From: a virus | Taxonomy: Duplodnaviria > Caudoviricetes | IMG/VR virus record: IMGVR_UViG_3300032218_003165 | Coordinates: 1-27,255 of that record | Length of the DNA: 27,255 nt | Reading direction: 5' to 3' (one strand) | Shown: in pieces, positions 8,353 to 14,313 of the stretch | How the letters are laid out: each line of letters begins with the position of its first letter | Position numbering within the stretch: the first letter of the stretch is position 1 | The notes under the pieces: model-generated | Told to the model about the DNA's origin: nothing | Databases searched by the model: none | Seen by the model: the letters and a program-made list of their open reading frames with translations, nothing else | Made by a program: the position numbers and the translations under genes

Positions 8353-9978
8353 TCACGCCCCAGCATCGTGTTGACTCAGCCTGGAGCATCCGGCCTTCCA
8401 GTAGTCCTCGTTGATCTCGCAAGCCCAATAGTGTCTGCCGATCGACTGAGCCGCCTCGCACGTGCTGCCGACACCGCCAAAAGGATCGGCTACGCGCTGT
8501 CCTTCAACGGACACAGCCTTAAGGATGTGGCACAGAAGATCGACGGGTTTTTCAGTCGGGTGCCTGTCTGCGTTCACGCGGTCAAACTCCATCACGTCCG
8601 CTTCTCGAGTGAAGAGGATCGGTGAACCCTTGACGGCGTGAATGATCCGCTCGTGCTTTGGTGCAAACGTGGTGTTGGGGTCACCCATGCCGGCGGCGTT
8701 CTTCACCCATACCAGCGAGCCGCGGATGGCGAGGCCGGCTTCTACGAGCGAGGCGCGCATGGCCTCCTCGTTTCGCCAGTTCGTGAAAACAAAAACGTGA
8801 GCGTCGGCAGTGAGCTTCGGCATAAAAGCCGTGACAAACTCCGCCACCTCGGCCGGGCCTTCGCCAGCTCCGTCGTTCTCGATCTTGTCGTGCCGCCGTT
8901 CCTTGCGGCGATCCACACGGTGATCGCTCTGGTATCCCATCCCATACGGCGGATCGGTCAGCAGCACCGACACCGATCCGTCGATGACCGAGTCCACGTG
9001 ATCCCGCCAATTGCCGTGCAACCACTGATTCGGACCGCTCTTGCGAATGCGCTCCTCGATCTCCAGGCGGTAGCCGATGATCTGGCGAACGTCCCACGAC
9101 TTGCCGCCTTGGTTGTCGATCAGCCAGCGTTCGACTTCGTCCATCCAACCTGCGGCCAGTTGGCCTGAACGCTCGATCTCTTCGCGGTGCTCGTGGATCA
9201 AGTCCATGATCGCGTTCCGCTCTTCGGCAAGCTTGCGGACGGTCTGAGCCGAAAACTCCTTCGTGTCAAGGAACCGCTCGACGATGCCGGCCAGCGGCAG
9301 CCACAGCGAACAGCCCTCCGGCTCTTGGAACTCGTTGACCTTTCCGACCCAGTGTTCCGTGTCGGCGACGGTCCAACCATTCAGCATGTGCGGAACGATC
9401 ACCGGCCACAGCGAAGAATCGGCAGAGTGGATGCAATACAGGTGCTTCGCTTTTTCCAGCAAATCGTTTACTTGAGTAAACGATTTCGCCACCTCTGCGG
9501 CCGCAACGAGTTGAGACAGATACGGAGCGCCCTTGCCAAGTTTTCGGGCGTAGTCAGCAAGGCCGCCCTTCTTTCCACGCCCGGCCGCCGCCTTCCCGAC
9601 ACGCTCCAAAGCATGCAGACCGATCTCGAGCGGTGCCAATTCGCCCTGATTGTTGCTCGTCGCCAGTGCCATGTACGCCTGCTCATCGTCCATCTCGACG
9701 ACCCAGCACGGCACCGACTCAAGCCCGCATTTCACGGCAGCGGCGTGCCGATGGTGTCCGCTGATGATCTCGTATTCATTGCCGACGAAGCGGACAGTGA
9801 TTGCGTGACGTGGTTCGATGGCCTTAAGTTCTTCGATGCCGTCCGCGATCGCATCGACAACGTCCTGACGAAGCGCCACGCGCGGATTCTTTGGGTGCGG
9901 TCGAAGTGCCTTGACCGAAATCATTCGTACCGTTTCTGACGCCGTTGACATCTGTGCCTCGTTGTTTGTCTGTGCCAT
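8353..9978 (-). CDS. ParB/Srx-domain fused beta-class N6/N4 DNA methyltransferase
   Basis: N-terminal PHPKNPR...IISGHHR (ParB); C-terminal TDPPYG (motif IV), HPTEKP and DPFGGVGST (motif I) in beta order. Confidence 0.92.
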   Translation of the reverse strand: MAQTNNEAQMSTASETVRMISVKALRPHPKNPRVALRQDVVDAIADGIEELKAIEPRHAITVRFVGNEYEIISGHHRHAAAVKCGLESVPCWVVEMDDEQAYMALATSNNQGELAPLEIGLHALERVGKAAAGRGKKGGLADYARKLGKGAPYLSQLVAAAEVAKSFTQVNDLLEKAKHLYCIHSADSSLWPVIVPHMLNGWTVADTEHWVGKVNEFQEPEGCSLWLPLAGIVERFLDTKEFSAQTVRKLAEERNAIMDLIHEHREEIERSGQLAAGWMDEVERWLIDNQGGKSWDVRQIIGYRLEIEERIRKSGPNQWLHGNWRDHVDSVIDGSVSVLLTDPPYGMGYQSDHRVDRRKERRHDKIENDGAGEGPAEVAEFVTAFMPKLTADAHVFVFTNWRNEEAMRASLVEAGLAIRGSLVWVKNAAGMGDPNTTFAPKHERIIHAVKGSPILFTREADVMEFDRVNADRHPTEKPVDLLCHILKAVSVEGQRVADPFGGVGSTCEAAQSIGRHYWACEINEDYWKAGCSRLSQHDAGA

Positions 9979-9980
9979 AG

Positions 9981-10289
9981 TCACACCCTCCCCCAAGTCA
10001 CCGCCCTCTTCCCGCCCTTCGTCCGCCCCTCGCCGGCCTGCCTGACCAGCCCATCGGCGACGAGCTTCACCCGCCGCGGCCGCACCGCGTTCAGATCGAT
10101 CCCGAGGGCCAGGCCGATCGCCTCGTCCGTCATCGCCCCGCGGGCGGCGAGTAGATCGAGGATGCGTTGCCGCTGACTCTCGGCCTTGGTCTTCGTCTGC
10201 CCCTTCGCCGCCGCCACGCTCGTCGGCGAGTGCTGCTGGGCCGGGGCGTCATCGAGCGGGAGATAGTGTTGTCCGTTGAATACGCTCAT
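9981..10289 (-). CDS. winged-HTH protein
   Basis: Start MSVFNG at 10289; TS.AAA...RILDLL..RGAMTDEAI..ALG...NAVRPRRVKLV..GLV. Confidence 0.8.
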   Translation of the reverse strand: MSVFNGQHYLPLDDAPAQQHSPTSVAAAKGQTKTKAESQRQRILDLLAARGAMTDEAIGLALGIDLNAVRPRRVKLVADGLVRQAGEGRTKGGKRAVTWGRV

Positions 10290-11780: not shown

Positions 11781-12049
11781 GCCTTCTCCTCTCGTGCCGC
11801 GAAGATCAGACAATCGCGGATGTTGATGATGGTGTTCGACAGCGGCTGCGGTGTGGGCGAGCACTGATACCAGTCCTCAACCATCATTCGGCACAGTTCA
11901 ACGAGGTGCGGGGCAATCTCCCTGCCCTTCGCCTCGCTGATCTCCGGGCACACCGGCACGGAACGGTAAGCCGTCAGACGGTCGCGGACACGCTCAGCGT
12001 TGAGCAGAGCCTTTGCCGCTGGCGTGATCGGTGCGGGTGCGTCGGTCAT
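11777..12049 (-). CDS. hypothetical protein
   Basis: 90 aa, ATGA-coupled within the operon. Confidence 0.65.
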   Translation of the reverse strand: MTDAPAPITPAAKALLNAERVRDRLTAYRSVPVCPEISEAKGREIAPHLVELCRMMVEDWYQCSPTPQPLSNTIINIRDCLIFAAREEKA

Positions 12050-12780
12050 GCCACCACCTCCGTCTCGATCTCGGCGTGCCGGGCGTCGATCATGCCGTCG
12101 AGCTGCTCCCGCTGTTCCGGCGAGAGCTTGCCGCTGCTGACGGCGGCATCGGCGTCGTCGCCGATCCGGCCCAGCTCATCGACCGTCACCGCCTGGGCGA
12201 CGCGGTCACGCCAGCCGGGCCGCTTGGCCGGCTCGGCGGCCTTCGGCGTCGGCATCGCGTCCCGCAGCTCGTCCGGGTCGTAGTTCCCGACCGCACCGGC
12301 CCAGCCGATGCTCTTGAGCGCCGCCGTGATGCACCGGCTGCGGATCATCGCCCTCGGAAACTTGCTGTGGTTGCCGCCCGTGAGCCCGGCCTTCTTGGAG
12401 TCTTCGGCCGTCCATGTCTCGGAGTGCTTGTCCCCGTTCGGGTGCGTCAAGTGCAGCACGGCCCGCGTGTCGTCGAGCGTCTCAAACTCAGCCCGGCCGC
12501 CGGACTCCTTGAAACGGGCCAACTGGCTGTCGGCCTTCTCGACGACGTTGCCCTTGATGATCTGGAGCGAGCGGATCGCCCTCATCGGCGGGATGCCCAT
12601 ATCCCGGCCCGTCAGGACGATCGCGGCAAACTGCTCGCCTGTCCTGATGTGGTCGGGCAGAAATCCGGTCTTCACCATCTGCGAGCCGGCTTGCACCAGC
12701 TCAAAGAAGTTGAAGGACTCCGTCGCCTCGCGGACGGCAACTTCGCCGCCTCGCACTTCCGTCGTGATCTCATTCCCCAT
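12046..12780 (-). CDS. RecT/Red-beta-family single-strand annealing protein
   Basis: GFLPDHI...AIVLTGRDMGIPPMRAIRSLQIIKG...WTAEDSKKAGL...KFPRAMIRSRCI...YDPDEL; start re-called to 12780 (or 12786). Confidence 0.85.
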   Translation of the reverse strand: MGNEITTEVRGGEVAVREATESFNFFELVQAGSQMVKTGFLPDHIRTGEQFAAIVLTGRDMGIPPMRAIRSLQIIKGNVVEKADSQLARFKESGGRAEFETLDDTRAVLHLTHPNGDKHSETWTAEDSKKAGLTGGNHSKFPRAMIRSRCITAALKSIGWAGAVGNYDPDELRDAMPTPKAAEPAKRPGWRDRVAQAVTVDELGRIGDDADAAVSSGKLSPEQREQLDGMIDARHAEIETEVVA

Positions 12781-12905
12781 CGCCATCTCCCATGAATGTG
12801 TTGATCGTTCCCCGCCGCCGGCGTCTCCGACGCCGACGGCCCTCATCCATGACCACCCGCTCCGCGGGCTCCGTGCCGGTGGCGTCTTGCCACGGCCCGT
12901 CCTGT
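12781..12905 (-). ncRNA. CsrB/RsmZ-like GGA-hairpin array (sRNA or recT leader)
   Basis: Seven GGA motifs in 125 nt, at least four in apical loops: GGC-ACGGA-GCC, CGC-GGA-GCG, TCA-TGGA-TGA, GCCGTCGGCGTC-GGA-GACGCCGGCGGC. Confidence 0.65.
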
Positions 12906-13172
12906 TCAGCGAACCTCGCTCGGATCGGCAACGAGCACGTCCATCGGAACCGGCTCGTGGATGTCAGACGGACGGACAGCAATCCGCCCGCCGTCGATCT
13001 CCAGCGTCAGCCATCCAGCAGCAACTTCGACCACGCGGCCGGAGAACGCCTTCCCGTAGCACTCGCCAGAAACCCACTGGTCAACCTCGTATGCCGGTCG
13101 GCCGTAGGTCTCAACCATCCCCGCGATCGCGCCGGCAGCTTCCGCATCACCGGGCATGACATTCGTGTGCAT
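12906..13172 (-). CDS. small SH3-like beta-barrel hypothetical protein
   Basis: VDQWVSG...FSGRVVEV..GWLTLEIDGGRIAVRPSDI pattern; GGAG RBS. Confidence 0.65.
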   Translation of the reverse strand: MHTNVMPGDAEAAGAIAGMVETYGRPAYEVDQWVSGECYGKAFSGRVVEVAAGWLTLEIDGGRIAVRPSDIHEPVPMDVLVADPSEVR

Positions 13173-13662
13173 CGCTCATCTCCCTGGTCGTGTTGCTTGA
13201 GCAGCAGGAACCGCCCTGCCGCTCCCATCGCTCGATCCATCCCCTCCGCCACGCCACCGCCTCTTCGCGGGTGGCAAATGCCTTCCGCCGCCCGAAGTAG
13301 CTCCGCCGGCCACCCGGCAGACGCATCTCCCGGTTAAACCGGGCCTCCCACTTCAGGGGGCTCGCAATGTCCGGGTAGTGCCGGATGCTCTGCTGCTCCT
13401 CCGCCACCACGGGCCGGGCATGGCGGAGACGCTCCCGCCGTGCCTTGTGCCAGACCCTCCCGGCAGCCAGACGGCGCTGGGCCATCGGTGACGCCAGGGC
13501 GATCGGGCTCGATGCCCGAGGAAGCCCGTAGCGGGCGGCTTCCCGCTGTTCATCCGTCCATGACGCCTGGAAAGCCAGGCACGTCGTCTCGATCTCCTCC
13601 GGCCTTGGTGCGTACTCAATCACTGCCACCATCGTCTTGCTCTCCGCTTCCTGAGTGTTCAT
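13147..13662 (-). CDS. protein with C-terminal AP2-like DNA-binding domain
   Basis: KWEARF...GRR.YFG...FATREEAVAWR; first gene after the early promoter. Confidence 0.65.
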   Translation of the reverse strand: MNTQEAESKTMVAVIEYAPRPEEIETTCLAFQASWTDEQREAARYGLPRASSPIALASPMAQRRLAAGRVWHKARRERLRHARPVVAEEQQSIRHYPDIASPLKWEARFNREMRLPGGRRSYFGRRKAFATREEAVAWRRGWIERWERQGGSCCSSNTTREMSDAHECHAR

Positions 13663-13829
13663 CTGTTCACTTGTTTGGTGCGAAGATACCCGTCAGGAAA
13701 TGGGCATCAACGATCCCGAAAAAATGAAGTGTCCACCCCGAAGAATGAGCCAAAACGGACGTTTCCGTTGACTCCGAAAGCGACCTAAGCCGCAGTCGTG
13801 TTGCGCACGTTCGTGAGCAACGAGGGCGA

Positions 13830-13859
13830 AAGATATTCCAGCCCCTGCGGATCCGTCAA
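13830..13859 (-). promoter_or_regulatory. putative sigma70 early promoter
   Basis: TTGACG-N18-TATCTT in the ~250 bp intergenic gap upstream of the early operon. Confidence 0.55.
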
Positions 13860-13909
13860 GGGACGTTTTTTACGTTCGTGGAAAACGCTGTTTTCAGCAG
13901 GAAAACGCG

Positions 13910-14140
13910 CTAAGAAGCCCGCTTGGAGTAACCCTTGCGGGGCCGGCCTGTCGTTGGCGGCCGAGCGACGACGCGATCAACGTCTGCATCGAGAAAGGCA
14001 GAAGCACGGCCGAAACGATAGCGCTTCAACTGCTTCCGCCGCACCAGGGTGTGGACGCCGCCCGTCGTCATGCCCAGCCGCTTCGCGGCCTCATCGACGG
14101 TGATCCAATTTCCGATCGGTGCGGGAAGTGACACTGCCAT
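13910..14140 (-). CDS. HTH_17 (Xis/MerR-like) DNA-binding protein, excisionase or repressor
   Basis: WITVDEAAKRLGMTTGGVHTLVRRKQL...GRPR; divergent from the integrase. Confidence 0.85.
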   Translation of the reverse strand: MAVSLPAPIGNWITVDEAAKRLGMTTGGVHTLVRRKQLKRYRFGRASAFLDADVDRVVARPPTTGRPRKGYSKRAS

Positions 14141-14146
14141 GCCCCG

Positions 14147-14174
14147 AGGATATTCCCCCGGCGCGCGACATCAA
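14147..14174 (-). promoter_or_regulatory. putative leaderless promoter of the HTH gene
   Basis: TTGATG-N16-TATCCT, 6 nt before ATG 14140, no Shine-Dalgarno. Confidence 0.5.
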
Positions 14175-14202
14175 GTCTGCGTATCGTTCCCTTGTTCACG
14201 CG

Positions 14203-14253
14203 GCCCCTGTGTTTGCAGGGGCTTGAATGGAGGATAGTTCTCTCGATCCCCTG
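14203..14253. other. candidate attP: degenerate tRNA-Ala 3' end plus hairpin
   Basis: TGGAGGATAGttctCTCGAtCCCCTG (14228-14253) resembles the reverse complement of a tRNA T-arm and acceptor end; hairpin GCCCCTG/CAGGGGC at 14203-14222 follows it in tRNA sense. Confidence 0.5.
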
Positions 14254-14313
14254 GTGGACGACTGTTCACTGTCGGGTACCCTTGGCATGGACGCCTCAAA
14301 TGGAAACAAAGCC

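Follow-up and report, generated by a model that had tools for sequence, protein, structure and literature searches.

Between two genes of a leftward phage operon, the viral DNA studied here carries a conserved array of covarying GGA hairpins and GGA-containing linkers that recurs in a family of uncultured phages and whose ligand is probably CsrA, judging from its motifs, their conservation and the linkage of the array to phage csrA genes. The window, by which we mean the whole stretch of 27,255 nucleotides that was analysed, is one virus record with a completeness of 84% (CheckV).

Genomic context of the array

The array occupies a gap of 125 nt on the minus strand (12781..12905), whose letters match those transcribed in an earlier sequence-only reading; the stop codon of ORF 12906-13172 lies on its 5' side and the start of a recT-like gene on its 3' side. 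The recT-like gene (12046..12780, minus strand) encodes a RecT-like ssDNA-annealing protein (PHROG 4171, E 2.7e-11; Pfam RecT weak, E 0.034), and its start is likely at 12780 and possibly at 12786. The upstream ORF (12906..13172, minus strand) encodes 88 amino acids predicted to form an SH3-like beta-barrel (structure model pLDDT 64.6); its matches to Tudor/KOW-type folds were weak (E>=0.02), and the fold search gave no match at E<=0.001. This ORF is the most frequent upstream neighbour of the array, and csrA stands directly before it in many relatives. Its family keeps an N-terminal GDxEAAGAIAGM segment and differs in the C-termini, including 46-aa forms without the barrel. A further ORF of 171 amino acids (13147..13662, minus strand) shares homology with the gene that opens the operon in relatives; it matched neither a Pfam nor a PHROG family, and in gene maps its C-terminal part stands where relatives have csrA.

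A promoter-like site at 13830..13859 (minus strand) is a candidate start of the operon transcript by consensus match, one such site being found vs 0.3 expected in shuffles. Near it lie two hairpins, at 13731-13760 (minus strand) and 13864-13887 (plus strand), which are terminator-like by consensus and as numerous as expected by chance. Elsewhere in the window, positions 8353-9996 encode an N6/N4 DNA methyltransferase that carries a ParB N-terminal domain as a fusion.

Architecture of the array

The conserved structured element itself spans 12799..12906 on the minus strand, as defined by the alignment of 49 distinct homologs and their covariation, and a scan of the window with a model of the element (R1) found one copy, at 99.8 bits, the next best hit scoring 16.5. 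Minus-strand GGA motifs start at 12902, 12872, 12863, 12848, 12828, 12811 and 12790, so that the sequence and the count of seven GGAs in 125 nt were correct as first written. It is important to note that this number is ordinary: dinucleotide shuffles of the gap hold 5.2 on average (P(>=7)=0.19), many other windows in the 27 kb hold 7-12, and the raw count was dropped as evidence for an array. GGAs able to sit in a hairpin loop are enriched in the same comparison, with 5 found vs 0.93 expected (P=0.002, 5000 shuffles, uncorrected), a value that is the highest in the 27 kb on either strand and is reached nowhere else. The folding stability of the gap is modest (z -1.6 and -2.1).

From its 5' end, the element begins with a single-stranded site, CAGGACG (12898..12904, minus strand), right after the upstream stop codon. 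The site is a form of the CsrB repeat CAGGA(U/A/C)G given in the consulted part of PMC7652899; its GGA was fixed by our search pattern. Hairpin 1 (12875..12896, minus strand) has an internal loop and a 5-nt NNGAN loop; it is paired in 100% of the homologs, with compensatory changes in two of its three inner pairs. Its loop reads AAGAC in the window, contains GGA in 28 of the 49 homologs and lacks it in the other 21. Next comes the site ACGGA (12870..12874, minus strand; an ANGGA form), which pairing in the homologs identifies as a linker, not as the loop of a supported hairpin, and whose GA has an unpaired probability of 0.85-0.99. The hairpin GGC[ACGGA]GCC drawn here by the sequence-only reading shows no compensatory change, and it is disrupted in the five homologs in which the neighbouring stem covaries or mismatches. 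Hairpin 2 (12856..12868, minus strand) has 5 bp and a GGA loop and is likewise 100% paired, with a C-G pair replaced by A-U in four homologs and by U-A in one. A second linker site (12843..12852, minus strand) matches CANGGANG, a consensus taken from the available text of PMC4894983, and its GGA is present in 49/49 homologs while N varies. The hairpin TCA[TGGA]TGA, proposed in the sequence-only reading, is only 60% paired in the homologs.

Hairpin 3 (12814..12840, minus strand) has 12 bp, nine of them with compensatory changes, and a loop that holds GGA in 47/49 homologs; no U-run follows its stem. The remaining segment (12787..12813, minus strand) comprises the sixth GGA, an A/C-rich spacer and the Shine-Dalgarno sequence of the recT-like gene, which contains the seventh GGA, with spacings of 17 and 21 nt. 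All hairpin loops of the array have the form NNGAN, and loop 1 is invariant only in GA. Two of the seven GGA sites in the window cap supported stems, four lie in linkers and one belongs to the Shine-Dalgarno sequence; the element is real, and the sequence-only reading had drawn part of it wrongly. Among the 49 homologs, an array of 108 nt holds 6-11 GGAs (median 7), the GGA of the Shine-Dalgarno region is kept in 44, a site of the CANGGANG type lies over the Shine-Dalgarno sequence in 34, and a distance of 40-110 nt separates the most strongly conserved sites from the ribosome-binding site.

Conservation and covariation of the fold

A query with recT gave seven loci, in only some of which the element adjoined recT; it followed the upstream ORF. 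Pattern scans of viral, genome and metagenome collections yielded 57 distinct element contexts; 33 of the 35 genome-collection matches and many of the viral ones were due to chance. Annotated phages gave one distant recT match, and the gap upstream of it holds no array. Forty-nine homologs were aligned (alignment A2), leaving out one chance match, one sequence that was too short and those identical over the core; their pairwise identity is 61-99% (median 79%). The homolog filter fixed three GGAs, and conservation was judged on the GGA sites outside those patterns; likewise, the presence of the loop-1 GA in 49/49 homologs was partly fixed by one search pattern.

A fold of three hairpins is common to the 49 distinct homologs. 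Over its 24 pairs, 94.6% of the alignment cells can pair vs 88.4% in shuffles, and compensatory changes on both sides occur in 14 of the 24 pairs vs 4.8 in shuffles and 2-6 in slid controls, the structure having been drawn from the same alignment and related sequences inflating such counts. The stem of hairpin 3 is wholly rewritten in four loci (L157, L219, L220 and L234). Over 21 pairs (three weak ones left out), G:U cells number 41 and A:C cells 2, an excess indicating that the transcribed strand is the array strand, that is, the minus strand. Among the findings that would speak against it, the sequence-only reading had named stems lacking covariation in relatives and a conserved coding signal in the overlapping ORF 12770-12982. 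Three stems covary; the frame of that ORF is interrupted in all but 13 of 52 loci, and the alignment contains indels that break it. A coding role of this ORF, or read-through of the stop codon, was rejected because the frame is not kept across loci.

Arrays in independently selected loci

We selected 79 loci by the upstream SH3-ORF protein alone, independently of the array. Strong matches to model R1 were present in 26 of them, and many others carry arrays whose stems are unrelated but whose loops show GGA, either at this junction or one gene farther on. With a GGA site score that was written after the arrays had been seen, and on loci that are redundant, at least four sites in the 130 nt downstream were found in 57/75 loci, compared with 5/75 upstream (near-identical contigs) and 0/75 on the opposite strand. 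A recombination-type gene is in view in 68 of the protein-selected loci. The top GGA cluster falls between the SH3 ORF and this gene in 64 of them (with a score of at least 4 in 52), follows the PHROG 3657 gene in two and is absent downstream in two. The first or second gene behind the array is RecT-, Bet- or Sak4-like or belongs to PHROG 1366; the immediately following gene varies widely, and flanking genes are exchanged freely at this junction. The array stands after, not before, a putative annealing gene in L062, L101 and L224, and it stays with the downstream gene in L083 and L089, where genes have been inserted upstream. Arrays without the SH3 ORF occur in distant csrA phages, and arrays persist where the ORF has lost its barrel.

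Several further observations concern this junction. Methyltransferase-like or other genes lie between the SH3-barrel ORF and the array in L083, L089, L232 and L233, and in L254, which shares its contig with L083, the beginning of the array seems to be present twice where the insertion lies. A second conserved structure, with a long stem and two inner hairpins and without GGA, follows the SH3-barrel ORF in L301 (4210-4290), L314 (566-650) and L316 (2565-2645).

The sequence context of the GGAs was compared in 36 hand-picked arrays (39 tried). Sites of the CANGGANG form account for 33/268 array GGAs vs 197/5340 in the background, and CAGGAYG for 28/268 vs 49/5340; these are the published RsmE and CsrB forms, respectively, in the consulted text of PMC4894983 and PMC7652899. 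In 8 of 31 representative arrays, a run of at least four U stands before the next gene.

Linkage to phage csrA

Of the 32 virus records that bear the element, 19 have a csrA gene above the Pfam cut-off. This gene shares the strand of the array in 28 of 57 contexts (many of the others being truncated); its usual place is some 400 nt upstream, which gives the order csrA, SH3-barrel ORF, array, next gene. The phage CsrA proteins keep positions equivalent to L4 and R44, which are RNA-binding residues of CsrA (PMC7652899, consulted in part). The link is not obligate: csrA is present on 0/3 records at least 90% complete in the 32-record set and, in a second set (50 of the 79 protein-selected loci), on 2/6 such records and on 5/49 overall, and records without csrA still keep arrays. 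The window itself has no csrA, as had been stated and as a CsrA search confirmed, and the suggestion that the partner would be the host protein is plausible, relatives at least 90% complete and without csrA keeping the array.

Loci were also chosen by the CsrA protein, 80 of 175 being examined. In the close ones, the array lies 413-1679 nt downstream of csrA in 19/20. Among the 60 distant loci, sense-strand arrays score in 11 and an antisense one in 1; four of the 11 look like chance, and seven lie at most 130 nt before the csrA start. The array is thus the csrA leader in 7/60 distant csrA loci, and also in L363, L247 and L261, so that two csrA arrangements are seen, one with csrA upstream of the array and one with the array as csrA leader. 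By eye, the order array, csrA, Sak4-like gene occurs in L349, L352, L356, L361 and L363. In L349, L350, L351, L352, L356, L357, L361 and L363, arrays of GGA hairpins with ANGGAU hexaloops lie about 130 nt before csrA as its leader, in several followed by a Sak4-like gene. The leaders in L247 (1455-1621) and L261 (819-985) carry several GGA hairpins. Immediately ahead of the start codon of csrA they close with a stem of 11 bp, whose loop reads ACGGAC, and six U; their terminator-like end gives them an attenuator-like appearance. Conserved GGA sites in a covarying fold, CsrA-type contexts and the linkage to phage csrA together support the proposal, already made from the letters alone, that CsrA is the probable ligand.

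Probable host

The host is probably a planctomycete, as suggested by two short phage-like contigs in Planctomycetota bins, which is weak evidence: the two true elements among the 35 genome-collection matches lie on contigs of 3.0 and 4.6 kb, in bins titled Pirellulales and Planctomycetaceae. Model R1, run on 151 genomes with 25 candidates scored per genome, matched four, of which only a phage-like contig in one (G001) was convincing and three looked like chance. The SH3 ORF was found in 1 of 401 genomes of the host class, and no integrated prophage copy was found among them. CsrA occurs in 61/61 sampled genomes of the probable host class, with 2-17 matches each, in agreement with PMC13443453.

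Relation to known CsrA-binding RNAs

The sequence-only reading had described the gap as a CsrB/RsmZ-like array. Several GGAs placed in hairpin loops or unpaired linkers, the recurrence of CAGGAYG and CANGGANG sites there and a frame that is mostly closed do liken the element to CsrB/CsrC and RsmX/RsmY/RsmZ, small RNAs described for Gammaproteobacteria under BarA-UvrY/GacS-GacA control. In contrast to them, it has no Rfam match: the CsrB, CsrC, RsmX, RsmY and RsmZ models gave none at E<=10 within 12000-14300, which was the search the reading had proposed, and none at gathering score in 14 related loci, and the TwoAYGGAY motif model matched neither the window region nor the related loci. It also lacks a promoter or terminator consensus of its own in the window (sigma-70 type only for the promoter), and a U4 run after the last hairpin occurs in 1/49 close homologs and is absent in the window. 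The element spans the distance from the upstream stop codon to a ribosome-binding site; membership in the CsrB/RsmZ family, and with it the idea of a free-standing sRNA, is not supported.

RsmW of Pseudomonas aeruginosa, derived from a 3'-UTR, has about 120 nt and seven GGAs (PMC4950607, consulted in part). The array resembles it in size (about 110 nt), in GGA number (median 7) and in beginning at the end of the upstream gene; unlike RsmW, it is phage-borne and is directly followed by another gene, the sequence comparison having been made via Rfam. The CsrA-repressed leaders of E. coli glgC, pgaA and csrA, as described in part in PMC7652899, also have hairpin GGA sites upstream of a Shine-Dalgarno GGA, although the Shine-Dalgarno GGA behind the arrays does not clearly exceed what other genes show (p=0.10), and in some relatives the array stands directly before the csrA start, as in the autoregulation of E. 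coli csrA. The array differs from glgC-type leaders in being intercistronic and phage-borne, with 6-11 sites, a covarying fold and interchangeable recombination genes behind it. The flaA mRNA of Campylobacter jejuni has two CsrA sites (PMC4894983, available text), whereas the viral array has about seven. Overall, the array would work like known CsrA-binding RNAs but is phage-borne and intercistronic and stands outside the CsrB/RsmZ family by the searches above.

Relatives of the window encode a phage CsrA above the Pfam cut-off. Phage-encoded CsrA/RsmA proteins are known from PMC8450108, PMC7366521 and PMC11879866, where they are described as host-manipulation factors; the consulted parts of these three papers name no cognate phage RNA for them. 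No phage-encoded CsrA-binding array was found in searches of the open-access literature, although supplementary motif tables could hold one, and no RNA antagonist for the CsrA paralogs of Planctomycetota was found in the literature searched. The motif name 'GGAM' was found neither in the literature search nor in the main text of PMC8632094 and was dropped.

Possible functions of the array

The explanation we put first, with close to an even chance of being right, is that the array is an intercistronic CsrA operator, or multi-site docking platform, for early recombination genes, and would couple their expression to how much CsrA is free. The array would be transcribed with the leftward operon; CsrA dimers, supplied here by the host and in relatives by phage or host, would occupy the sites in hairpins and linkers and from there reach over to the GGA of the Shine-Dalgarno sequence, in the manner of E. 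coli glgC. Bound CsrA would then repress translation or read-through until the accumulating transcript titrates it, which would set a threshold or delay for the recombination genes (here recT) and, where csrA itself follows the array, would create a negative feedback; the consulted text of PMC7652899 describes the mechanism on glgC and the repression by CsrA of its own translation in E. coli. A role in cis is favoured by the constant position of the array before a gene start, by its staying with the downstream gene after insertions, by the CANGGANG site on the Shine-Dalgarno sequence in 34 of 49 homologs and by its abutting csrA. Several findings count against an operator, however. Ribosome-binding sites behind the arrays do not clearly surpass those of other genes in their likeness to CsrA sites (ANGGA in 21/31 vs 48/98, p=0.10), the next gene varies and the array follows the annealing gene in the three loci mentioned above, a median of seven GGAs is more than an operator needs, and 21 of the 49 first loops are without GGA. 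Moreover, two GGAs in the window lie in 3-nt loops on stems of 5 and 12 bp, which is not the SELEX optimum, CsrA ligands from SELEX favouring hexaloops on short stems (PMC7652899, in the part available).

Less likely than not is an array that acts mainly in trans, as an mRNA tail or as a processed RNA some 110 nt long; by titrating the CsrA paralogs of the host at an early stage of infection, it would lift the repression of phage and host mRNAs. The RsmW-like number of GGAs per 108 nt, the start at the upstream stop codon whichever gene that is, the distance of the best-kept sites from the ribosome-binding site, the retention in complete genomes without csrA, the U-runs before the next gene in about a quarter of the representative arrays, the terminator-like hairpin ending the L247/L261 leader and the 2-17 CsrA matches of probable hosts all speak for such a sponge. 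A sponge would, however, require neither one fixed place ahead of recombination genes nor direct contact with the start codon of csrA, and the window element has neither promoter nor terminator consensus, with U4 after the last hairpin almost absent in the close homologs. Operator and mRNA-borne sponge may coexist, the sponge being a close rival, and the flaA mRNA of Campylobacter offers a precedent for a CsrA target that is also a titrator (PMC4894983, consulted in part). Doubtful to a similar degree is a self-contained phage Csr circuit composed of the array, in many phages csrA and in some a GGA-capped terminator between them, in which excess array RNA would sponge host and phage CsrA while read-through would set the CsrA dose and gate the recombination genes.

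The remaining explanations dispense with CsrA. It is improbable that the hairpins bind another protein, such as the SH3-barrel protein or a host termination factor, and serve as an antitermination or processing signal, as lambda nut and HK022 put reportedly do. Such a signal would suit the NNGAN form of all loops with only GA invariant in loop 1, the weak KOW/Tudor likeness of the most frequent neighbour and a position fit for early-operon read-through; against it, some distant csrA phages have arrays but no SH3 ORF, arrays outlast the loss of the barrel, and the linker sites match the published CsrA consensus. Still less probable is a conserved module boundary or a set of ssDNA hairpins used in recombination. 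GGA triloops form stable GNA mini-hairpins in DNA, the fold is stable as DNA (z -3.4), two loops read C-GGA-G and flanking genes are exchanged freely at the junction; yet a homology boundary needs sequence identity, while in distant phages these loops recur on unrelated stems, the G:U excess marks the transcribed strand, and linker GGAs outside stems are invariant. That the array is a chance structure in GC-rich DNA or part of coding sequence 12770-12982 is scarcely credible: the ordinary GGA count and modest folding z-scores would allow it, but the covariation, the frame-breaking indels and the closure of the frame in most loci contradict it.

According to the consulted part of PMC11879866, no test had been made of what phage csrA does during the life cycle of the phage, and a conserved phage RNA that travels with csrA is a concrete candidate target for phage CsrA. 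If the circuit reading were true, the array would serve as a CsrA sponge encoded by the phage itself and as the cognate RNA that partners phage CsrA. In Planctomycetota, whose sampled genomes carry many CsrA matches, the array may open a first way to study the use of CsrA or its counteraction.
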